A DNA stretch of 64,000 nt from the IMG/VR virus record IMGVR_UViG_3300036770_000877, positions 40,500 to 104,499 of that record; one strand, written 5' to 3'. This DNA is from a virus. Both the position numbers and the translations under genes were made by a program. The first letter of the stretch is position 1. Each line of letters begins with the position of its first letter. Positions 35,250 through 59,475 of the stretch are shown piece by piece. Under the pieces are notes generated by a model, which was given only the letters and a program-made list of their open reading frames with translations, did no database searches and was not told where the DNA came from.

Positions 35250-35780
35250 AGTCATCTAGGGCAAGGAGAATTTCTCTTGCTATCCCGTCGAAATTTATTG
35301 ATCCATTATTAAAATACTTACCTGACTGTATAAGCTTTTGTAGCGTATCAGCTAGATATTGCTGTTTTGTCATATCCCGTCCTCCTAATTTATTAGACGT
35401 AGATAATCAATTATAAGTTATATAGTCATTATTAGCAAAATACTCTATATGCCCTGTTTATTTATATATTGGTATTTTGTTAATAAAATTTTAAATTTTA
35501 CAAAGGTGTTTTCGTATATAGCTATGGGATCCTATTTTGAAAATCCCCCCACCCTTTCCATATTTACCAAAATGTTAGTAAATTTTTAATTTGTATGATG
35601 CAGCATTTTGCGATGTCCGATTTGTCCTAATAGCGAGCACAGATTTGTGAGCAAGGTCACAAAGTTTTTTTTCAAAATGTCCGATTTATCCGTGTTGTCC
35701 CCTTGAAAATGTCAGACCCCTCTGCTAGACTTTAGTCATAGAAAGTTGATAAAGGTTATCAACAAAGAAAGGAAAACAAA

Positions 35781-35993
35781 ATGTTTTCACTAAGTTATAA
35801 AATTCAATCAAAGTCCGAAAGTAATGTGTTCGGCACTTGTCTAGGTGTCGTGTTCGATACCGAACAAAAGGCTTGGTCATATCTTGACCTAGTAGAAAAG
35901 GATAACTACATCCTTGAATGTAATCTAAAAGAATTAGAAAACTACAAGCCTAGCAAGCGTGTAGTATTCGCTACTACTAGAAGTTGGGAGTAA
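35781..35993 (+). CDS. Early hypothetical protein
   Basis: AAGAAAGGAAAA RBS after the first promoter. Confidence 0.75.
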   Translation: MFSLSYKIQSKSESNVFGTCLGVVFDTEQKAWSYLDLVEKDNYILECNLKELENYKPSKRVVFATTRSWE

Positions 35994-35997
35994 TTCA

Positions 35998-36198
35998 ATG
36001 AATGAACAAACTCTACTAACTAAAATGGGTTTCTCTACTCATTCCGCCGTTTCATCTTCTATCGTATCCGATGGGTGGGAGCGTTTTGCCACCTGCTCAA
36101 AATGCGGTTTAGATATATCTGCCTTTTGGGTAGATGATGAAGACCGCCTTAGCGGTTGGTCATCTTGGAAAGCCACTAGTGGCTTATGCCAGGCGTGA
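35998..36198 (+). CDS. Early hypothetical protein (CxxC)
   Basis: ORF track. Confidence 0.6.
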   Translation: MNEQTLLTKMGFSTHSAVSSSIVSDGWERFATCSKCGLDISAFWVDDEDRLSGWSSWKATSGLCQA

Positions 36199-36305
36199 TA
36201 TAAATCACATCCAGCTCTCGGCGTGTCGCCTTGATATTGTCGGGAGTATCTGATAGTATTTACATATACAAATAAATAAATAAGAACCTAAAGAAAGGGG
36301 ACAAA

Positions 36306-36506
36306 ATGTCCGCAAATGTATATTCAATCGAAAACCTATTAGTAGGTAAAACCTATCGCTCAAATAGCCTAACAGGTGAAATAATCTCAGCCGAGCCTCA
36401 CCCTAAAGGTGTATGGTATGAGGGTTGCGATTCCTACTTAGTAGAAATCCGTAATGCTAATGGCGGTTATTCTTATCGCACAATAGCGGTAAAGGTAGGT
36501 GAGTAA
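36306..36506 (+). CDS. Early small beta-rich protein
   Basis: AAGAAAGG RBS; paralog of 39294..39509. Confidence 0.75.
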   Translation: MSANVYSIENLLVGKTYRSNSLTGEIISAEPHPKGVWYEGCDSYLVEIRNANGGYSYRTIAVKVGE

Positions 36507-36508
36507 TA

Positions 36509-36667
36509 ATGAAAATCACTTACTCAATATGGCAGGGCTCTATTATCAAGGGCTCAGGATTCACCGCCTCTAAAATGTCGGAGGTCGCTGATACAATAAA
36601 AGAACTAAACGCAACAGACACTAAACCAAAGTTTGAGGCGTATATTAGCAAAATCGAACAGAACTAA
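36509..36667 (+). CDS. Early hypothetical protein (52 aa)
   Basis: MKITYSIWQG...; below the ORF-track cutoff. Confidence 0.55.
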   Translation: MKITYSIWQGSIIKGSGFTASKMSEVADTIKELNATDTKPKFEAYISKIEQN

Positions 36668-36685
36668 CGAAAGGAAAACTAAAAA

Positions 36686-36850
36686 ATGGAAATACAAATC
36701 GAATTCTCAAAATGGGGTTTTGGTTTTTACTCTGATTTTCTTGCGCTAGATTTTACTTGGGGTTTTCTTGGCTCTCTTGTAGTAATCTATTTCGTAAATA
36801 AAATTCTAAAGCGTAATGAAATAAAATTATTTCGTAAAAGAGTAAAATAA
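36686..36850 (+). CDS. Early small membrane protein (54 aa)
   Basis: GAAAGGAAAA RBS, one TM, basic tail. Confidence 0.6.
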   Translation: MEIQIEFSKWGFGFYSDFLALDFTWGFLGSLVVIYFVNKILKRNEIKLFRKRVK

Positions 36851-36851
36851 A

Positions 36852-37022
36852 ATGATGACTAGAAAAGACTACATCACCGCTGCGGATATTCTAAATCAAG
36901 CATATCCAGAAAATCCCGAACTAATTTTAGAGATGGCTTCTGATTTCTCTGATTATTTCGCAAAGGATAATCCTAGATTTTCCCGCCCTCGATTTTTTGA
37001 GGCAGTAAAAAAGGGCTGGTGA
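36852..37022 (+). CDS. Early hypothetical protein (MTRKDY...DNPRF type)
   Basis: Motif pattern seen in small phage proteins. Confidence 0.65.
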   Translation: MMTRKDYITAADILNQAYPENPELILEMASDFSDYFAKDNPRFSRPRFFEAVKKGW

Positions 37023-37065
37023 GATAACTCACAAAACTGATCGGCGTGTCGCCTTGACAAATCTG

Positions 37066-37089
37066 CGACACGCCCGACAGCGGCGGGCC
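37066..37089 (+). repeat. 24-bp GC-rich repeat CGACACGCCCGACAGCGGCGGGCC, copy 1
   Basis: Identical at 39103 and 40344. Confidence 0.95.
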
Positions 37090-37091
37090 TT

Positions 37092-37107
37092 TCGAACAGA
37101 TGTTCGA
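37092..37107. promoter_or_regulatory. Actinobacterial SOS box (LexA site)
   Basis: TCGAAC-AGAT-GTTCGA, perfect match to TCGAAC-N4-GTTCGA. Confidence 0.8.
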
Positions 37108-37252
37108 TTTAAGAGAGCCCCAAAATGTGGTGTAAATCACAAAACAAAATGTCCGATTTATCCGATTACTGGTCAGTAAATGTCAGTGGTCTATGGTAGG
37201 ATACTAGGTATCAAGATGAGATAAAGGTTATCTCAAAGAAAGGTGGTCTAAA

Positions 37253-37465
37253 ATGGCTACATTAGAAATATTCGAAATGAACGAAAATGGTGCTGGTTGG
37301 GTATCATTAGAAAATGCTTCACAATCTACAAAACTAGATTTGGAATTAGCAATCATAACAAATGCTCCCGTGCAAATGTTGTGCTTCAAATGTCATACAC
37401 CAATTCCAAAAGGAAATGTGTGTTTCAATCATAAAAATGTGAGAGGTGGTATCTACCTTGACTAA
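37253..37465 (+). CDS. Early Zn-finger-like protein
   Basis: AAGAAAGGTGG RBS, CFKC...C..H. Confidence 0.7.
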   Translation: MATLEIFEMNENGAGWVSLENASQSTKLDLELAIITNAPVQMLCFKCHTPIPKGNVCFNHKNVRGGIYLD

Positions 37466-37564
37466 AGATGTTTTTGGATTTGAAAATGCAATTCAATTAG
37501 ACCATTTAACTTTAGAAGAGTTAAAAGAATTAGAAAATATTTTAGAAAAAATAAAATAATTTTT

Positions 37565-37637
37565 GGTGCGTTAGATTAGTGGTTAAATCACTACACTGTC
37601 ACTGTAGAGATCATGGGTTCAAATCCCATACGCATCG
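37565..37637 (+). tRNA. tRNA-Asp(GTC)
   Basis: Acceptor GGTGCGT/ACGCATC, anticodon arm CTACA-CTGTCAC-TGTAG, GGTTCAAATCC; no encoded CCA. Confidence 0.85.
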
Positions 37638-37644
37638 CTAGCTG

Positions 37645-37668
37645 CGACACGCCCGACAGCGGCGGCCC
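37645..37668 (+). repeat. 24-bp GC-rich repeat, copy 2 (1 mismatch)
   Basis: CGACACGCCCGACAGCGGCGGCCC. Confidence 0.92.
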
Positions 37669-37677
37669 TGTGGATAA
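37669..37677 (-). promoter_or_regulatory. DnaA box
   Basis: TGTGGATAA = TTATCCACA on the minus strand, intergenic; second perfect copy at 48052-48060. Confidence 0.55.
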
Positions 37678-37851
37678 CTTTGTCAATACGACACGCCGTA
37701 AAAACGCTGGAAATTTTTGTGATTTCTAACACAATGTGACGCACAACACATGTGATGTGGCTCACAATGTCCGATTTATACCTATTTTCGGCGGGAAAAT
37801 GTCAGTCCCCCCTGCTAGAATTGTGGCATAGAAAAAAGAAAGGATAACTAA

Positions 37852-37980
37852 ATGAAAATTTGTTGCTTCTGCGAAATTGACTTAGATAATGACGCTAAGT
37901 TTTGCTGGAATTGCCTAGAGTATAAAGGCGTAATGTCCGTTGAGGATTTTGAAAAATACTATGGAGAAAGGATTTCCTAA
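37852..37980 (+). CDS. Early Zn-ribbon peptide (42 aa)
   Basis: AAGAAAGGA RBS; CCFC...FCWNC. Confidence 0.65.
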   Translation: MKICCFCEIDLDNDAKFCWNCLEYKGVMSVEDFEKYYGERIS

Positions 37981-38072
37981 TGTCAGATTATCTTGATTAT
38001 CTAGATGAAATCTACGAGGAACTCGTAGACGAATTCGGTCATGAAATTGAAAGTAATTGTATTCATGACTAA
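37980..38072 (+). CDS. Early acidic peptide (30 aa)
   Basis: AGAAAGGA RBS; MSDYLDYLDEIYEELVDEFG. Confidence 0.55.
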   Translation: MSDYLDYLDEIYEELVDEFGHEIESNCIHD

Positions 38073-38171
38073 AATGTGAGGTATCTCACACCGACACTAG
38101 GGGCTAAATCCCCCAAAATGTCAGCCCCCAATGCTAAAATTGTATCCATAAAATAAAGAAAGGAAGTCAAA

Positions 38172-38354
38172 ATGACTTACACGATTAGACTAGAAACCTT
38201 CAATGGTTCAGTATCCAAAATCAACCTACCTTCTAAAGGTGCGGTTGCTCAATTCATCAACACTTATCCAAATCAACTCCCTGTCGGTATTTCCGTCAAG
38301 TTTGATTGCGACTTGCTCGGTGTTCGTGGTGTTCTAAAAGGAAAGGGAAAATAA
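38172..38354 (+). CDS. Early hypothetical protein
   Basis: Promoter at 38119 plus AAGAAAGGAA RBS. Confidence 0.75.
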   Translation: MTYTIRLETFNGSVSKINLPSKGAVAQFINTYPNQLPVGISVKFDCDLLGVRGVLKGKGK

Positions 38355-38355
38355 A

Positions 38356-38547
38356 ATGGAACTTTCTACACTAAATAAAATCAGCGATTTATTCAAGCAA
38401 CTAGAGGAAAAAAGATTTCCTAATAGTTCATCAAATAGCACGACCTCAATGGCTCGACAAATCGGCACAATGTCGGTTTTCGTTTCAGAAAAAAATGCTA
38501 AGCAAATAATTAAAATGTTAGAAAGAGAAATTGGAGAAATTGAATAA
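38356..38547 (+). CDS. Early hypothetical protein
   Basis: ORF track, GAAAGG RBS. Confidence 0.65.
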   Translation: MELSTLNKISDLFKQLEEKRFPNSSSNSTTSMARQIGTMSVFVSEKNAKQIIKMLEREIGEIE

Positions 38548-38699
38548 TGAAAAAAAATGTTTTAATCTCGTATGTTGTAGAGGCTGATACCGACCTATCC
38601 GCTATCTTTGCTTTACAAAAATCCCTGCGCTATTTACCTGATAGCGAATTAATTAAGTTTGACGCTTTCGAAGTTCTAGAAGTAAAGGAAAATAAATAA
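38547..38699 (+). CDS. Early hypothetical protein (50 aa)
   Basis: TAATG coupling on both sides. Confidence 0.6.
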   Translation: MKKNVLISYVVEADTDLSAIFALQKSLRYLPDSELIKFDAFEVLEVKENK

Positions 38700-38968
38700 T
38701 GATTAGCACCGCTCTAAAAATTCAAGACGCAACACAAAAAGCCGTTATGGATGAAAACATAATGAAAATGGCAGGCTTTATTTATACTCATAGAAATGAT
38801 GTTGATGACGAAATGATGGCTAAAATCATTTTTGAATATTCCGCAAATTTATCTGCTCTCGTTGCTACTTTGGTAAGCGAAGCAATTTTATCAGAAACCC
38901 AAATGAAAGAAATGATTTCAGAAATCGAAAGTTTTGAAAAAATTTCTAAAGAAGTTTTAGGAGAATAA
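38699..38968 (+). CDS. Early helical protein
   Basis: ORF track. Confidence 0.7.
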   Translation: MISTALKIQDATQKAVMDENIMKMAGFIYTHRNDVDDEMMAKIIFEYSANLSALVATLVSEAILSETQMKEMISEIESFEKISKEVLGE

Positions 38969-38969
38969 A

Positions 38970-39083
38970 ATGACAACAAATAGAATTTTAACAACGCTGG
39001 TTCAATTAATTTTAGCTGGCGTAACAATTCCACTTTTAATTTTAGCGATTAAAGATTTTAAACACGATCTAAAAAATAGATAG
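38970..39083 (+). CDS. Early single-TM peptide (37 aa)
   Basis: AGGAG RBS, hydrophobic stretch. Confidence 0.55.
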   Translation: MTTNRILTTLVQLILAGVTIPLLILAIKDFKHDLKNR

Positions 39084-39102
39084 TTTAATTTTCAACTAAA
39101 TC

Positions 39103-39126
39103 CGACACGCCCGACAGCGGCGGGCC
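39103..39126 (+). repeat. 24-bp GC-rich repeat, copy 3
   Basis: Exact copy. Confidence 0.95.
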
Positions 39127-39293
39127 TGATTTGTCCGATTTACGGCATTATGTCCGTTTTGCCAGAATTTCCAGATTTTTTTGTGAAATTTATCACACGA
39201 CACGCCGTATCAAAATATGAGATTACTTACGAGTAGGTTGAAAAATGTCAGTGGGTTTTGGTAAACTTGTAGGTATAAAGAAAGGAAAAACTA

Positions 39294-39509
39294 ATGCGTT
39301 CATACTCAATTGTAGATTTGCTAGTAGACCAATACTATGCGCCTACTTCTCTCCGCCGTCGTTTCAACGGAGGTATCATAAACTTTGCGGAAAAGCGTGA
39401 AGATGTCTATTTATCTGAAGGCTATGAAGCCTTCGCTATTCGCTTCCGCCCTACGGGATCTTTTCAAGACCAATGGGCGACAGTTGCCGTCAGGGTTTCC
39501 GACTACTAA
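39294..39509 (+). CDS. Early small beta-rich protein
   Basis: AAGAAAGGAAAA RBS; paralog of 36306..36506. Confidence 0.75.
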   Translation: MRSYSIVDLLVDQYYAPTSLRRRFNGGIINFAEKREDVYLSEGYEAFAIRFRPTGSFQDQWATVAVRVSDY

Positions 39510-39557
39510 ATGTCGGAGGCTTCTGCTAGACTTGTTCTATAAAGAAAGGAAAAGAAA

Positions 39558-39719
39558 ATGTCTGCTATAAAAAGACTAATTGAAAACATACTCGCTTGTG
39601 ATACCTGCTATGGAAAAGGTTTTATGGGTTGGGTTTCTCCAGACGGAGACTATGACTTTGAGTATTGCGATTGTAATCCTCATAACCTAGTTTTGGAAGG
39701 AAGCGAGGTAATTTTCTAA
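39558..39719 (+). CDS. Early Zn-finger peptide (53 aa)
   Basis: Promoter at 39511, RBS, CDTCYGKG...CDC. Confidence 0.65.
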   Translation: MSAIKRLIENILACDTCYGKGFMGWVSPDGDYDFEYCDCNPHNLVLEGSEVIF

Positions 39720-39829
39720 TGGAAATTTTTCTCTGCGATAAATGCGATACTCTCGCCCAAGTATCCCGAATTGGTGATACAATAAAAATAACTAAGTGTG
39801 CTTGCCTAGCACTAGATTGGAAAGACTAA
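39719..39829 (+). CDS. Early Cys-rich peptide (36 aa)
   Basis: CDKC...CAC, TAATG coupling. Confidence 0.5.
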   Translation: MEIFLCDKCDTLAQVSRIGDTIKITKCACLALDWKD

Positions 39830-40038
39830 TGGACTACTTATACTCGCTAACTATCTCCTATGACGGAGAATTGGTTTCAACAACCCGCTCATCGGATTTG
39901 CTAGAAATAGTAAATGCGTGGAATAAATGCGTGGACTTTGGAGATGCTAAAGAATACGCAACCTACAATTTATCAGACCCTAGTGGTAAGATGTATACCA
40001 AGAATTTCTACAGAAATGGAGTAGTAAATGGGAAGTAA
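39829..40038 (+). CDS. Early hypothetical protein
   Basis: Start reassigned to the ATG at the TAATG overlap. Confidence 0.65.
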   Translation: MDYLYSLTISYDGELVSTTRSSDLLEIVNAWNKCVDFGDAKEYATYNLSDPSGKMYTKNFYRNGVVNGK

Positions 40039-40306
40039 TCTATCAACCGAACTATCAAGTGGGCTATTGGATTTGGATTTGGAGCAACAGATAACTATTC
40101 AGTTGCGTTCTAATCATTACCCGCCCGTTCCGTATTCAATGGTTTCAGTTTGTATTGAAGCGATTGACGCATACAACGAAGGCGAACACAATAAAGAAAT
40201 AACTTTGCCTGAAGGCGTAAGTTGGCGTGGAAAAAATTCTGCACCTGCTTATTCAATTATTGACGGGCACCACTTGTGGGATTGGATTATCGAAAGCGAA
40301 TTGTGA
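40028..40306 (+). CDS. Early hypothetical protein
   Basis: QLRSNHYPPVP...HHL motif. Confidence 0.7.
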   Translation: MGSNLSTELSSGLLDLDLEQQITIQLRSNHYPPVPYSMVSVCIEAIDAYNEGEHNKEITLPEGVSWRGKNSAPAYSIIDGHHLWDWIIESEL

Positions 40307-40343
40307 TCTAAATCATAAAAGCTGCGGCGTGTCGACTTGACAA

Positions 40344-40367
40344 CGACACGCCCGACAGCGGCGGGCC
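40344..40367 (+). repeat. 24-bp GC-rich repeat, copy 4
   Basis: Exact copy. Confidence 0.95.
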
Positions 40368-40448
40368 TCAAATGTCCGATTTATGAGCTTTAAGTAGAAA
40401 CGCCGAAATTTTGTGGAATGTCAGTGGGTTATGCTAGACTAGTTTATT

Positions 40449-40583
40449 ATGAGAAAGAAAACGACTGAGGAATTACGGCGACTAATGGAGTTGCGCCGTA
40501 GTAATGCAGCCACGCCTGTAAAAAATAAAAAGGCGTATTCTCGCAAGCGCAAGCATAAATGTCGCCCCTATGGTGTAGAATAA
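40449..40583 (+). CDS. Basic 44-aa peptide with ArfA-like motif
   Basis: Near-leaderless after the promoter at 40419; KNKKAYSRKRKHK. Confidence 0.55.
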   Translation: MRKKTTEELRRLMELRRSNAATPVKNKKAYSRKRKHKCRPYGVE

Positions 40584-40605
40584 AATAAAGAAAGAAAGGT
40601 GCCCC

Positions 40606-41325
40606 ATGAAACTAAAACGCTCTAATGATAGAAAGGTTGCAAATGCAGTCTCAAGAAATGGAAAAACCCCAACAATTGCCAACACTTTTGGATTGCCTGC
40701 TGGAAAAGACTTCTCGTGTCCTGGTGCCACTAGTGTTTGTGAAAGCGTTTGCTATGCAGGAAAACTCGAAAGAGTATACAAGGGAGTAAAGGCTGTCCTG
40801 CTGCATAACTGGGAACTCCTACGCAATGCAGATATGGAAACAATGTCTCTATTGATTGATGAGATGATTGTTGACTTTGTTGCAGATTGTGAGAAAAAGT
40901 CTGCAGATAAATTATTCCGTATCCACTGGGACGGTGATTTCTTCAATGACACTTACGCATACGCATGGAAGGCTGTTATTGCTAATCATCCCGACGTACA
41001 ATTTTGGGTATACACTCGTGTAAAGTCTGCTGCTCTAATTCTAAAAGATATTCCTAACCTATCACTCTATTATTCTACTGATGATGAGAATAAAGAAATT
41101 GCTCATGAACTAAAACTAAATGACGGTATTCGCCTTGCTTATCTAGGAAAAACTTTCGCTGTCACCGAAGACAAAATGAAAGAACTAACTGGCAAGCCTG
41201 GTGCAAAATGCCCTGAGAATGCAAAACGTATTCCGTTGATTTCAACTAACGGTAGCGCATGCGTGTCATGCGGTCTATGCGTTTATGGTAAAGCAGATAT
41301 TCGATTTAGCGCAACTAAAAAATAA
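40606..41325 (+). CDS. GP88-family (radical-SAM-like Fe-S) phage protein
   Basis: FGLPAG..SCPGAT.VC..VCYA, FRIHWDGDFF, FWVYTR, C-terminal CVSCGLC. Confidence 0.75.
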   Translation: MKLKRSNDRKVANAVSRNGKTPTIANTFGLPAGKDFSCPGATSVCESVCYAGKLERVYKGVKAVLLHNWELLRNADMETMSLLIDEMIVDFVADCEKKSADKLFRIHWDGDFFNDTYAYAWKAVIANHPDVQFWVYTRVKSAALILKDIPNLSLYYSTDDENKEIAHELKLNDGIRLAYLGKTFAVTEDKMKELTGKPGAKCPENAKRIPLISTNGSACVSCGLCVYGKADIRFSATKK

Positions 41326-41333
41326 GGAGAAAA

Positions 41334-41447
41334 ATGAAACTATACAATGCATACATGGCCCTGTACTTAGGAAATGAAGAACAACAACAAGCTGCACAAG
41401 AATATCTCGACTCCTTGGAAGAATTAAAAGAAGAGGACCAGGAGTAA
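41334..41447 (+). CDS. Early acidic peptide (37 aa)
   Basis: AAGGAG RBS. Confidence 0.5.
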   Translation: MKLYNAYMALYLGNEEQQQAAQEYLDSLEELKEEDQE

Positions 41448-41686
41448 TTGGGTTACGTATTTGTAGCTTTATCTGTTGGGATCTTCTTGGTCCCCGCCGC
41501 TATAGTTTATTTACTATATAAGAAAAGCTGAGGCCCGCCCCGCATAAAGCGATTTGTCAAATTACGACACTGTGATTTTTCCCACAAAAGTTTTTGAGAA
41601 AATGTCCGATTTGACCCATTTCTAAGTTGCGCTCTGTCGGTCTGAAATGCTAAACTATTATTACCAACAAACGAAAGGAAGCAAAA

Positions 41687-41836
41687 ATGGCTAAGACACC
41701 AAAAATCGGTGAAACCATTACAACTGCTCAGAGCAAAGTTTCTGGCGTTGTAAAGGAAGTCGTAAAGAACCCATCTGGCTCGGTGCGTGTTCGTCTTGAT
41801 GTAGAGGGCGAAACTCGCTGGACTACTATCAAGTAG
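41687..41836 (+). CDS. Early small SH3/KOW-like beta protein (49 aa)
   Basis: Promoter at 41635, GAAAGGAA RBS; paralog of 42449..42631. Confidence 0.7.
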   Translation: MAKTPKIGETITTAQSKVSGVVKEVVKNPSGSVRVRLDVEGETRWTTIK

Positions 41837-41851
41837 TTTATCAGATAAAAC

Positions 41852-41882
41852 TGACCTGAGCAAGTCAATGCTAAACTGCTCA
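41852..41882 (+). ncRNA. Small H-type pseudoknot motif
   Basis: UGAC-CUGAGCAA-GUCA-AUGCUAAAC-UGCUCA; covarying copy at 33807-33778 (-). Confidence 0.6.
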
Positions 41883-41943
41883 CCAAGTTTATTCTGTCGG
41901 TGTGGTCTGATAGAATAGTAATACCAACTAAGAAAGGAAAAAA

Positions 41944-42366
41944 ATGGCAAGAAACGGCAAGGCGATAAATGTAAAAATCGCTACAACCAAAGTAATCAAG
42001 GCACTTGAGGGTGCGTTGGCTAAATTGGAAACTGAGTATGCTTCACAAGAAGCAAACGAGGCTAAGTATGAAAAGGCTCGTAAGGCTTGGGCTAAAGAAG
42101 TGGGTAAGTTAGCACTTGCTCAAATCTCAAAGGCAGAGAACCTAACTGCTTCTAAACGCTACAACAACGAGGTAAATGTTGATTTCAACTTACCTGCTGG
42201 AACTATCGTTCTACCTGATGAACCTAAAAAGGATTTCACCACAATGAACGAGTGGAACTATCGTGAGCAGAAAGAGGAAATTGAGAACGCTATTCGTATT
42301 CTCAAGATGACCGACGAGGAAGTCGTTTCCACTTCAACTTACAACGCTATCGCTAGATACTTGTAA
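41944..42366 (+). CDS. Early helical protein
   Basis: Promoter at 41895, AAGAAAGGAAAA RBS. Confidence 0.8.
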   Translation: MARNGKAINVKIATTKVIKALEGALAKLETEYASQEANEAKYEKARKAWAKEVGKLALAQISKAENLTASKRYNNEVNVDFNLPAGTIVLPDEPKKDFTTMNEWNYREQKEEIENAIRILKMTDEEVVSTSTYNAIARYL

Positions 42367-42448
42367 TCCTGATGGGGGAGGGGTGTTTGACCTCCCCCAC
42401 CAAATCTGATAAACTAAATATAAGCAAACAAAACGAAAGGAAAAACGA

Positions 42449-42631
42449 ATGTCCCCAGTATTCGGAAATAACAGCGATAGTTTCTATCGCAAGGGTGATG
42501 TATTCACAACTGGCAAGTCAGGTATCACAGGTCGCTTGGAGGAAATCGTATCAGTTAGACCAAATCTAACTAAGATTGCTCTACGCACACCTAACAACCA
42601 ACTTCGCTGGGCAATGGTAAAGATTGGCTAA
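42449..42631 (+). CDS. Early small SH3/KOW-like beta protein
   Basis: TTGACC-N17-TAAACT promoter (42387-42415), GAAAGGAAAA RBS. Confidence 0.7.
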   Translation: MSPVFGNNSDSFYRKGDVFTTGKSGITGRLEEIVSVRPNLTKIALRTPNNQLRWAMVKIG

Positions 42632-42797
42632 TCGATAGCCGATAGAAACAGTGGCAGTTTCGGGAATGTTCTCGCCACATGTCTTAAGTAAGAATTCCCA
42701 CCAAATTTCCCCTGGATGATCATGCGGAGTACAAAACAAAAATAGTAGACTCGTCAGAAGACGTCCAGGGGCCCAATTGGGCCACGGTCCATTCGAA

Positions 42798-42837
42798 TGC
42801 AGTCAGCTTGGTTACCTTTCTTTCCAGGCTGGCTGCA
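42798..42837 (+). ncRNA. Hairpin with anti-SD loop UUACCUUUCUUU
   Basis: 14-bp stem with two G-U pairs (plus strand favoured). Confidence 0.6.
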
Positions 42838-42989
42838 AGGCCCGCCCCGCCAAACCACGCTTGTCAAGTTACGACGATGTGATTTTGCCCACTAAAAAAT
42901 GTCCGAATTGCCCTAGTTTGCCAATCTAACTAGACATAGCCCACCTATGTATGCTAGACTTGATAAGTATCCAATAGAAAGGAAAAAAA

Positions 42990-44021
42990 ATGGCTACAAA
43001 TCTCGCTCATAAGCAAGAAGTAGAAAACGGCGATGTGTCGTTTGCTCTTGTTGATTCCCGCTCAAATCCTGCTTGGCACTCTTTTGCCAATAAGGTGTTC
43101 GATTCAGATTCAGGAGATGTTTCAATCTCCGACATAATGAATGGTGCTAAACTATCCAACTGGAATGTCCGTCTTGAAGATGTTGCGCCTCTTGCGCCAC
43201 AACACAATTTCATTACTGATTCATTCCTTGTTGTTCGTGATAACCCAATGACCGATGGTGCTACTGATGTGCTATCTGTTGTCGGTTCTCGCTATAAGGT
43301 TGTTCAGAATGAAGAACTATTCTCATTCGCTGAAAATCTCCACGATGGAAATCCTGATGTAAAGGTTGATTCTGCTGGTTCTCTAAAGCAGGGTCGCATT
43401 GTTTATGGTTCTTGGTCTTTGCCAAATGAACTAATCATTGACCCAAAGGGTGTTGCTGATAAGACAAAACTTTATCTTATCGTTTGGACATCTCACGATG
43501 GTTCTGTTGCTGTTCAAGCAGCAATCACACCTGTTCGTGTTCGTTGCCAAAACACTCTAAACCTTGCGATGAAATCTGCTAAGCAATCTTTCAAGATTCG
43601 CCACACGCAGACCGCAGATGGAAAGATTCTCGCTGCTCGTGAGGCTCTTGGTTTATCTGTTGCTTACTTTGACCAATTCTCAAAGCAGGCTAATGAACTT
43701 TATCAGGCTTCTATTACCGATAAGCAGTTTTCTGACCTTATCCGTAATCTTTACCCAAAGCCTGAAAAAGACGCTAAGGGTGCGTTGAAGAAGTGGGAAA
43801 ATAAGGTTGTCTTGATTGACGAACTTTATCATAACTCACCAACTAACGCAGGAATCAAAGGCACAAAGTGGGGTGCGCTAAATGCTCTAACTGAGCGTTT
43901 GGATTATTTCCGTTCTGCTCGTAAGGGTAATACGGAATCTCTTTCCGCTTCCGCTTCAGGTTTTGACCCTGTTATCACCGCAGAGAAAAATAAAATTCTC
44001 AAAGCGGTTGTCGCATTGTAA
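42990..44021 (+). CDS. DUF932 / phage-plasmid-like protein (TIGR03299 type)
   Basis: PAWH, VGSRYKVVQNEELF, AGSLKQG, TSHDGS, TPVRVRCQNTL, IRHT, GTKWGALNA. Confidence 0.88.
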   Translation: MATNLAHKQEVENGDVSFALVDSRSNPAWHSFANKVFDSDSGDVSISDIMNGAKLSNWNVRLEDVAPLAPQHNFITDSFLVVRDNPMTDGATDVLSVVGSRYKVVQNEELFSFAENLHDGNPDVKVDSAGSLKQGRIVYGSWSLPNELIIDPKGVADKTKLYLIVWTSHDGSVAVQAAITPVRVRCQNTLNLAMKSAKQSFKIRHTQTADGKILAAREALGLSVAYFDQFSKQANELYQASITDKQFSDLIRNLYPKPEKDAKGALKKWENKVVLIDELYHNSPTNAGIKGTKWGALNALTERLDYFRSARKGNTESLSASASGFDPVITAEKNKILKAVVAL

Positions 44022-44030
44022 AATGCTACG

Positions 44031-44060
44031 GGGGCGCAGAAATGCGCCCCCTATTTTTTT
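44031..44060 (+). terminator. Intrinsic terminator
   Basis: GGGGCGCA-GAAA-TGCGCCCC plus T-tract. Confidence 0.8.
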
Positions 44061-44215
44061 GATCTAAAGCTCGGCGTGTTGATTTGACAAAACAAGTTTT
44101 GCGGGGCGGGTCTGACTGTTTATTTTATCATTACGTCACAAGTTAAAAATGCCCTGGAATTTGCAGGATGTCAGTCCCATGGTGTAGTATTGTATTAAGG
44201 ATAGAAAGGTAGATT

Positions 44216-44425
44216 ATGAGTTGGCAATTAGAAGCCAGTTGCAGCGAGGACCAGCATGACTTGTTTTTCTCGCAGGCTAAAGGTAAAATGGATAGAGCAA
44301 TACAAATTTGTGGCTCGTGCTCTGTAAAGGGTGAGTGTCTTAAGTTTGCTATTGATGAAAAAGTAGAGTTCGGCATATTCGGTGGTCTCACACCGCAAGA
44401 GAGGAAAAAGAAATGGCTGATATGA
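44216..44425 (+). CDS. whiB: WhiB-family transcriptional regulator
   Basis: W..EASC...DLFF...ICGSCSVKGECL...FGIFGGLTPQERK. Confidence 0.9.
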   Translation: MSWQLEASCSEDQHDLFFSQAKGKMDRAIQICGSCSVKGECLKFAIDEKVEFGIFGGLTPQERKKKWLI

Positions 44426-44646: not shown

Positions 44647-44813
44647 GTTATACTGCAGATGATGTTGAACGTATGATTAATGCGGTTCATGATTCTAAAT
44701 TATTTTATCTTAGATACCCGTCAGACTTAATTGATAAGTCACAGTTACGTGCAGATCTAGAAGATACGGTCAGCTTTTTACAAGGTGTACTAGCCGAGGG
44801 GCACGTCCAATGA
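44640..44813 (+). CDS. Hypothetical protein (57 aa)
   Basis: MLGYTADDVERM..., overlaps the upstream stop. Confidence 0.55.
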   Translation: MLGYTADDVERMINAVHDSKLFYLRYPSDLIDKSQLRADLEDTVSFLQGVLAEGHVQ

Positions 44814-45072
44814 GCACTAGACATAAACAGTGTACACAATGCTATAATGGAAAGTATTACTTTTACAATGGTAAAGACGAACTAGTCGCTATCCCGTGCC
44901 CATTTTGCTAGGAGATAAAATGAGTAAAGAGTTTAAAGAACTTGTTGGAAAAGGCATTCTAGGTTTTTTGGGCCTAGGTGCCATAGTTATATACGTTATC
45001 TACAAAATATTTGTGGCCTAAGTCACACCTATATTCGTTGAATTTGTCCCCGTTAACTGTTAGGATAGATAT

Positions 45073-45282
45073 ATGGAAAAACTAATAGAATATATGAATA
45101 TACATCTTGTCAGTCTTCTGCAAGATTTAGAATCTTTGGAAGAACAAATGGAGCGATTGGATATGAACTCTAAGGACTTTATTGAGTTAGACTTTGAATT
45201 CAATAATATCTCAGGGCAAACCATTGCTACCCGCCACCTAATGTCAGTTGCTCGTGATATCCTAGAAGAACAGAAAGGATAA
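45073..45282 (+). CDS. Acidic helical hypothetical protein
   Basis: Leaderless after the promoter at 45045. Confidence 0.65.
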   Translation: MEKLIEYMNIHLVSLLQDLESLEEQMERLDMNSKDFIELDFEFNNISGQTIATRHLMSVARDILEEQKG

Positions 45283-59398: not shown

Positions 59399-59475
59399 TG
59401 GCGATCCCAACCAGACTTGAACTGGTGACCTCCTGCTCGACAGGCAGGCGTTCTGACCAACTGAACTATGAGACC
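59399..59475 (-). tRNA. tRNA-Asp(GTC)
   Basis: Cloverleaf, loop CTGTCGA, encoded CCA. Confidence 0.92.

Follow-up and report, generated by a model that had tools for sequence, protein, structure and literature searches.

An array of PafBC-type promoters with phased CRP-like sites in the plus-strand small-gene block of a freshwater virus

The DNA analysed here (the window; 64,000 nucleotides) runs from base 40500 to base 104499 of one virus contig of 104,499 bp, IMGVR_UViG_3300036770_000877, with a completeness estimate of 85%. In its sole block of plus-strand genes, recurring motifs are concentrated in one 8.6-kb stretch, the island, and on balance we favor the view that this island is a control region of about 13 promoters for the block of small genes, read by the PafBC activator of the host with tuning by a CRP-type regulator. 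The block is probably a host-takeover or early block. The motif observation is real, conserved, and mostly cis-regulatory, while the binding proteins, the trigger by single-stranded DNA (ssDNA), and the timing are what we infer from sequence.

In the proposed mechanism, host PafBC would be constitutively present and would be activated by ssDNA arising from entry of the phage DNA, from nuclease attack, or from replication, and it would then fire the island promoters by adapting sigma-A RNA polymerase to promoters that lack a conserved -35. A CRP-type dimer bound to TGTGA-N6-TCACA on one helix face, at more than half of the promoters, would tune the output to the cAMP or energy state of the host. 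Lineage-specific extras would act at subsets of the promoters. Besides a LexA box, these are a G-box joined to a -35 hexamer and another TGTC element lying three turns upstream; the relatives also have a DnaA-type box. PafBC sigma adaptation is known only from host DNA-damage genes, and our literature searches found no paper describing phage promoters of this type. If the explanation is true, phages of the most abundant freshwater actinobacteria would start their program without a polymerase, sigma factor, or activator of their own, PafBC would gain a role in infection, and compact promoters would combine ssDNA and cAMP inputs.

PafBC-type promoters and phased CRP-like sites

The pattern TGTCRG-N10-TAnnnT was found 16 times in the genome (15 on the plus strand) compared to a mean of 1.5 in 200 second-order Markov simulations, which supply the expectations for this genome, and 12 of the 16 copies lie at 35710-44169, every one on the plus strand. 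All four genome copies of exact TGTGA-N6-TCACA (simulation mean, 0.07), all nine of CGACACGCC (0.05), all four of CGACAGCGGCGG, and seven of the eight of TGTCCGATTT (8 observed against 0.23) fall in the island, and one SOS box was observed against 0.01 simulated. With one mismatch allowed, the 8.6 kb contains 11 of 15 CRP-like sites, 10 of 11 G-boxes, and 10 of 12 D-boxes, with about 1 of each expected. The enrichment that the preliminary description had proposed to look for, over the rest of the genome and over shuffled controls, is borne out by these counts. It does not extend to TTGACA alone, which had been listed as an element of the kit (62 copies genome-wide, no enrichment), and the sites called for DnaA (TTATCCACA; 2 against 1.4 expected) and as TTACT-N4-AGTA (4 against 1.35) occur about as often in this genome as chance predicts. 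Nor is the island enriched in classical sigma-70 -35/-10 matches (49 against 40.7 +/- 7.2 expected).

The PafBC consensus determined in vivo is tGTCgg(N10)tA(N3)T, with a canonical -10 and no -35, and the helix-turn-helix (HTH) of PafB reads the -26 element (-23 to -28) (PMC8635444); activation of PafBC requires ssDNA (PMC8635444, PMC11804915). The match to this consensus that had been claimed for TGTCRG-N10-TAnnnT holds, and the geometry of the island promoters, with a -26 element, a -10, and no conserved -35, matches that of PafBC (sigma adaptation) promoters as far as sequence can tell. Like the PafBC-dependent (RecA-NDp) promoters of mycobacteria, they combine a tGTCgg-like element at about -28 to -23, a spacing of exactly 10 nt, and a tAnnnT -10 of the housekeeping-sigma type (PMC8635444, PMC11804915). 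They differ in that they serve phage genes, about 13 per genome in one block, in that their consensus is more A-rich, and in that many carry a phased CRP-like site; their dependence on PafBC is putative. A related mode is found at the T4 middle promoters, where a MotA box acts with AsiA through sigma appropriation (PMC8635444): there, too, an activator element near -30 takes the place of the -35 next to a normal -10, and host RNA polymerase is redirected to phage genes. T4, however, brings its own factors, whereas a phage factor was not found here and the element equals the site of the host activator.

The same promoter is seen in 80 related viral contigs with a Gp88 82 to 98% identical (1.23 Mb in total; counts only partly independent). 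Here, TGTCRG-N10-TAnnnT has 1098 matches on the gene strand versus 9 on the opposite strand, while the other spacings from 5 to 16 give only 3 to 242 matches. The promoter logo reads aaaTGTCAGtg...cTGnTAtAAT, with zero information at -35 or upstream of AAA-TGTC, 80% of the promoters have the TGTCAG form, and AAA precedes the element. In an unbiased count of words recurring within loci, AAATGTCAG came directly after the ribosome-binding site (RBS) as the top recurrent non-RBS word, followed by GGCGTGTCG and then by G-TTATCCACA-G. The perfect CRP palindrome occurs 396 times, GGCGTGTCG 388 times, and CGACACGCC 134 times, while GCGGCGGGCC is restricted to the closest kin. Among 455 de-duplicated promoters, CRP-like sites accompany 57%, G-boxes about one-third, DnaA-type boxes about 14%, and D-boxes 7%, and 36% have no box of these kinds. 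Of the boxes, 96 to 98% lie within 300 nt upstream of a promoter. The claim of one kit used in varying order is matched by the 73 arrangements among these promoters. Inverted repeats around the -26 element were rejected as a general feature: at least 7 complementary bases are present in a minority of the relatives' promoters (4.1%, against 0.5% in mismatched-pair controls), and the window has no G/C-rich inverted repeat bracketing a -26 element.

The island contains 4 perfect and 7 one-mismatch CRP-like palindromes. In the relatives, with 1109 upstream segments collapsed into 457 clusters, 259 clusters carry such a site. Counted upstream from the T of TGTCRG, the centers lie at 26.5, 36.5, 46.5, and 56.5 nt and, less often, at 41.5 nt (Rayleigh R of about 0.6 for the helical register). 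Each spacing class includes 7 to 26 unrelated intervening sequences, which means that the register is kept while the sequence between the two elements diverges. The window follows the same classes, with the sites at 35646, 39182, and 41571 at -56.5 and those at 36194 and 38075 at -36.5. This 10-bp phasing is the behavior of a cis-acting regulator site and would not be needed for a passive sponge. The palindrome TGTGA-N6-TCACA matches the CRP consensus, as had been claimed, and the CRP sites of the Mycobacterium tuberculosis whiB1 promoter, at -58.5 and -37.5, share one face of the helix (PMC2844151). The phage palindromes resemble such CRP-dependent promoters in lying upstream in helical register, at times in tandem, and are candidate operators for host CRP. 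Unlike at whiB1, the partner promoter is of the -26 type, the deduced centers are nonclassical, and the phage sites are nearer to the consensus than any in host-type genomes.

A strict-motif scan found more than 120 further stretches with such promoters. Five of these contigs (L171, L181, L186, L190, and L198) have only 0 to 4 weak protein matches to the phage in the sampled stretches, yet they carry 9 to 16 same-strand promoters per 9 to 15 kb. They are low in GC, lack CRP sites, and have a completeness that implies genomes of about 90 to 95 kb; one encodes a WhiB. The occurrence of PafBC-type promoters in contigs that share few or no proteins suggests a shared host factor. The cultured Gp88-bearing phages AnnaL29 (Cluster A) and Mandalore (Streptomyces) are without arrays. 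AnnaL29 (L136) has two PafBC-type matches only, at 41919 and 48723 on the minus strand, which is its gene strand. The repressor gene lies directly downstream of one match, and the second is close to the right end of the genome.

The LexA box and the candidate host

The single perfect TCGAAC-N4-GTTCGA at 37092 agrees with the published SOS box TCGAAC(N4)GTTCGA (PMC3381160), and the LexA match claimed earlier is strengthened by its flank, as bases 37088-37106 share 19 consecutive nucleotides with the recA promoter of host-type genomes (chance, about 4e-5), which in the candidate genomes reads ...TACCTT followed directly by TCGAACAGATGTTCGG. The 19-mer is present in 3 of 151 sampled genomes of the class and in G201, located at recA every time. 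The first 15 nt of the phage box, which are identical to the recA box of the candidate order, were found in 45 of 51 genomes of the order to which G140 belongs and never in the control; this search covered that order, whose sampled genomes are 1.2 to 2.2 Mb (45 of 51 at or below 1.5 Mb). The lone LexA box is not noise. It overlaps no promoter in the window, as no -10 adjoins it and 74 nt separate it from the next downstream -26 element; among the relatives, SOS-like boxes occur in at least four contexts, often straight after TATAAT. The idea that CGACACGCCCGACAGCGGCGGGCC is a decayed copy of the recA promoter was rejected, with the similarity outside the 19-mer within the range of shuffles.

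Because of the 19-nt identity with the recA operator, the host of the phage probably belongs to this streamlined actinobacterial order, whose genome size and GC content are consistent with acI/Nanopelagicales (PMC10202952). The phage WhiB and Gp88 likewise point to an actinobacterial host. The identity with the recA operator is a rare sequence-based host clue for this phage group, the likely hosts of which lack CRISPR spacers (PMC10202952). Other routes gave less: the phage WhiB had no match as a query in a host search of genome contigs, and a search with NrdJ matched phage contigs mis-binned into metagenome-assembled genomes of many phyla and yielded one actinobacterial handle.

The regulators needed are available in the candidate order, as had been required of a host, since it encodes PafBC, CRP, LexA, and WhiA. 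WYL proteins are present in 200 of 201 sampled genomes of the host-type class (this tally and the 3 of 151 above include the unpublished genomes G007, G015, G024, G030, G032, G036, and G043; specific claims rest on other genomes). The three genomes studied closely, G095, G140, and G201, are closed, of about 1.4 Mb, and of 45 to 50% local GC, and each has tandem PafB and PafC genes; the G140 pair matches the 7p5x chains with E = 4e-39 and 9e-22. PafB of the host-type genomes keeps the RMFERDK arginines. There is one CRP per genome, and that of G201 is the orthologue of M. tuberculosis CRP (E = 7e-77) with an identical recognition helix. TGTCRGTG-N8-TAnnnT occurs 4 to 9 times per host-type genome versus 0 to 1 in the reversed control, and this strict motif precedes recA, carD, and a LysM gene divergent from lexA. 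The host-type recA promoters have TGTCAGTGG and the exact spacing in common with the phage promoters.

About 25 kb of G140 (C1:443341-467143; L117, L120, L123, and L126) contains seven of the nine strict PafBC-type matches of that genome, with promoters before trypsin-like peptidases, a TPR protein, and unknown genes. In G095, the matching promoter sequence (L125) is found before a C5 DNA methylase. The G140 stretch could be a damage- or phage-inducible island.

Accessory boxes and competing readings

The accessory boxes differ in how well they can be assigned. In 69 of 127 de-duplicated contexts (54%, versus 4% at random positions), the G-box GGCGTGTCG is followed by a TTGACA-like hexamer, with a gap of 2 nt in 64 of these 69 (GGCGTGTCG-NN-TTGACA), and only 15 of the 69 have a -10 at 16 to 18 nt. 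This GACAC-containing unit is absent from five host-type genomes and, judged by its distribution, is a phage-specific composite; GGCGTGTCG itself is not enriched in these five small genomes, and the G-box was therefore rejected as a common host operator. Its layout is compatible with binding by WhiA and WhiB, by analogy with the activation complex at sepX, in which WhiA (GACAC), WhiB, and sigma-4 are arranged together (PMC10243135). As at sepX, an asymmetric GACAC on either strand lies just upstream of a -35, and a WhiB is available, here encoded by the phage, making it a possible partner for the composite. Unlike sepX, the conserved phage unit has a fixed gap, mostly lacks a -10, and is missing from those host-type genomes. 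The earlier assignment to WhiA thus stands for the layout but not for the identity, since what is conserved is a 9- to 10-mer fused to TTGACA. The D-box (AAAATGTCCGATTT) is a repeat of the first 9 bases of the -26 element, and at four window promoters its TGTC is 31 to 32 nt, or three helical turns, upstream of the promoter TGTC. TTATCCACA is enriched in the relatives (244 and 87 on the two strands), and in host-type genomes it is concentrated toward the ends of the chromosome. When flanked by G-rich sequence (g.gggTTATCCACAgg), it is common 60 to 115 nt upstream of promoters in the more distant relatives (L003-L080), while in the closest kin it is replaced by D-boxes and a GC core, indicating that accessory boxes turn over between lineages.

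Host PafBC need not be the reader. Phage-encoded proteins, made early or delivered by the virion, might read the -26-like element, the palindromes, or both, in which case the promoters would form a phage class like that of T4 MotA and the likeness to PafBC and CRP would be convergence. We regard this as unlikely, although the extended consensus aaaTGTCAGtg is tighter than that of the host, the G-box composite is specific to the phages, the turnover of accessory boxes is what phage-encoded specificities would be expected to give, many tiny CxxC proteins of unknown function are encoded in the island, and the contig is incomplete. The scanned phage proteins yielded no DNA-binding domain, sigma factor, or WYL protein: WYL proteins, a CRP-type HTH, sigma-70 region 2, and an integrase are all absent from the contig, at about 85% completeness, and none of the 38 scanned proteins of the plus-strand block has an HTH. 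A phage reader would also have to account for the sharing of TGTCAGTGG and the exact spacing with host-type recA promoters and for the same promoter in contigs with few or no detectable shared proteins, and proteins not yet made cannot drive the first wave of transcription.

It is improbable that the array is mainly a DNA sponge, with replicated phage genomes titrating PafBC, CRP, LexA, and sigma-A/WhiA from host promoters and blunting the damage or defense response. Titration would fit the boxes without a working promoter, such as most of the G-box composites and the SOS box with no adjoining -10, as well as the three tandem CRP-like sites at 37718-37766. It would also fit the numbers, with 4 perfect CRP palindromes in the phage against 0 to 1 in a whole host-type genome and 16 loose-pattern (3 strict) PafBC-type promoters against 4 to 9 strict matches per host-type genome. 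Promoter-linked helical phasing, the fixed order (A-C-G-promoter), and the closeness of nearly all boxes to a promoter point to action in cis, however. Each genome has a modest number of sites, and any titration could be incidental rather than the function. A similarly low probability is given to the reading that the repeated spacers are mainly recombination substrates that shuffle small-gene cassettes, with the boxes being ordinary promoter parts without a sensing role. The promoter-early stem-loops of T4-type phages are an analogue of such repeats. In the assemblies of four RNA libraries, related strains have cassettes missing or exchanged, and the joints coincide with repeated promoter and RBS sequences; the many box arrangements among the relatives agree with shuffling. 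This reading is compatible with control by PafBC but does not account for the identity with the recA operator, for the strand bias and the 10-bp phasing, or for a geometry that is exactly that of PafBC.

Several points weigh against control by host PafBC and CRP. The host is deduced rather than known, and perfect CRP palindromes are nearly absent from host-type genomes (0 to 1 each). If transcription is assumed to start 7 nt after the -10, the CRP-like centers fall near -54.5, -64.5, -74.5, and -84.5, not at the textbook positions of -41.5, -61.5, and -71.5. Some promoters have a usable -35 (35703, 36231, and 39238) and might function without PafBC, and since the contig is only about 85% complete, its absent portion could encode a phage factor, or such a factor could have a novel fold. 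In the preliminary description, the island was seen as a multi-input sensor of host state, as a sponge, and as the best candidate for an undescribed system. The sensor agrees with the phasing of the CRP-like sites but loses its DnaA and TTACT-N4-AGTA inputs, a sponge is not needed to explain phased and promoter-linked sites, and the last label was overstated for what is an array of promoters and operators. A bolder version, which we think rather unlikely, is that an abundant family of lytic freshwater actinophages uses the ssDNA-sensing PafBC of the host as an ignition switch for take-over genes by promoter mimicry alone, with no phage transcription factor. The alarm for DNA repair, and perhaps for defense islands, would in this way set off the phage genes, while the replicated array, with its orphan LexA, CRP, and sigma-4/WhiA-type sites, would also drain these regulators from the host.

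The array and its surroundings

The units of the array are listed in Table 1.

Table 1. Features of the array and its immediate neighborhood (window positions)
Feature	Position	Strand	Content
Spacer 1	35610-35780	+	Divergent junction with minus-strand lysis genes; D-boxes 35613, 35677; perfect CRP-like palindrome 35646-35661; PafBC-type promoter 35710-35731
Spacer 2	36194-36305	+	CRP-like 36194-36209 overlapping upstream TGA stop; GGCGTGTCG 36220 + 2 nt + TTGATA; promoter 36238-36259
PafBC-type promoter match	36576-36597	+	Within small open reading frame 36509-36667
Spacer 3	37018-37252	+	CRP-like 37018; G-box 37043 + TTGACA 37054 (without following -10); G-box 37066 + GC core 37080; SOS box 37092-37107; CRP-like 37126; two 9-bp D repeats 37149; TTACT-N4-AGTA 37166; promoter 37181-37202
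19-nt string CCTTTCGAACAGATGTTCG	37088-37106	+	Same as recA promoter-operator of streamlined actinobacterial genomes G095, G140, G161, G201
tRNA-Asp (GTC)	37565-37638	+	Inside island
Spacer 4	37639-37851	+	G-box 37645 + GC core (1 mismatch); TGTGGATAA 37669; G-box 37689; three tandem CRP-like sites 37718/37735/37751; D-box 37767; promoter 37800-37821
Spacer 5	38073-38171	+	Perfect CRP-like palindrome 38075-38090, center 36.5 nt upstream of -26 element; promoter 38119-38140
Spacer 6	39084-39293	+	G-box 39103 + GC core 39117; two D-like boxes; perfect CRP-like 39182-39197; G-box 39198; promoter 39246-39267
PafBC-type promoter	39511-39532	+	48-nt gap upstream of gene at 39558; no accessory boxes
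Spacer 8	40302-40448	+	CRP-like over TGA stop 40302; G-box 40326 + orphan TTGACA 40337; G-box 40344 + GC core 40358; D-box 40372; promoter 40419-40440
Spacer 9	41520-41686	+	Inverted GC module GGCCCGCCCCGC 41532; TTGTCAA; CRP-like 41571; D-box 41602; promoter 41635-41656
PafBC-type promoter	41895-41916	+	Upstream of gene at 41944; no accessory boxes
Two spacers, 42367-42448 and 42632-42989	42367-42989	+	Either side of small gene 42449-42631; ordinary sigma-A-type promoters
Spacer 13	44022-44215	+	Intrinsic terminator 44030-44051; G-box (1 mismatch) 44073 + TTGACA 44084; GC module 44101; promoter 44169-44190 upstream of phage WhiB gene
Phage WhiB-like gene	44216-44425	+	PF02467, E = 1.6e-18
Final array unit	45012-45263	+	CRP-like 45012 (1 mismatch); promoter 45242-45263

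The order of boxes described for the example at 37018-37202 was confirmed on re-reading the sequence. The motifs are present across the extent first given for the island, 35610-44195, but the array continues beyond that end to 45263, and the promoters are spaced 0.26 to 2.3 kb apart rather than recurring every 0.6 to 1.5 kb. Most spacers do end in a promoter of the TGTCRG type, as described, but two end in ordinary -35/-10 promoters: TTGACC-17-TAAACT at 42387 in the spacer 42367-42448 and TAGACA-18-TAGACT at 42931 in the spacer 42632-42989, which additionally holds a GC module (42839) and a D-like box (42899). The promoter of spacer 2 combines a -35-like hexamer and a -26 element. The terminator of spacer 13 is strong (z = -4.3) and the sole clear one; the G-box/GC-core modules were rejected as terminators, as their folds (z = -0.8 to -1.75) did not surpass those of shuffled sequences.

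Other phages, too, have small-gene blocks in which short conserved sites recur or promoters are dense. In Cluster A mycobacteriophages, the sites are the stoperators, to which the phage repressor binds to stop elongation, and SPO1, T4, and T5 have host-takeover modules with many early promoters. Whole cassettes of small genes vary between related strains of the present phage, and their boundaries fall in repeated promoter and RBS sequences; the contigs from the four RNA libraries join across, or hold other sequence between, the points 36243>36665, 37851>38355, 38538>38695, and 36000>37040. Island words are present in six riverine metatranscriptomes at 34 to 42% (assembled contigs, for which DNA carry-over is possible).

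The contig has a GC content of about 39%, and nearly all of its genes are on the minus strand, the single exception being the small-gene plus-strand block at about 34.3 to 49.1 kb of the window, which includes genes for Gp88 (PF17338), DUF932, and WhiB. Genes for a CHAP lysin and an Hsp20 adjoin the block on the left on the opposite strand, and this Hsp20 falls in viral clusters only in the protein atlas. Gp88 homologues are known in L5-like mycobacteriophages and in Streptomyces phages of about 120 kb; by megablast, the island matched none of the cultured phages. Metagenomes in which the phage was detected come from 15 studies and represent freshwater, lakes, rivers, and the subsurface, and there are more than 590 related viral contigs.

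The only known RNA family in the island is tRNA. Of the two tRNA-Asp (GTC) genes, one stands alone inside the island and the other (59399-59475) is part of a tRNA cluster at 58 to 62 kb. Five tiny open reading frames (35998-36198, 37253-37465, 37852-37980, 39558-39829, and 44810-44911) encode paired CxxC motifs that are zinc-ribbon-like and match no family, and their products are candidate binders of nucleic acid or RNA polymerase.

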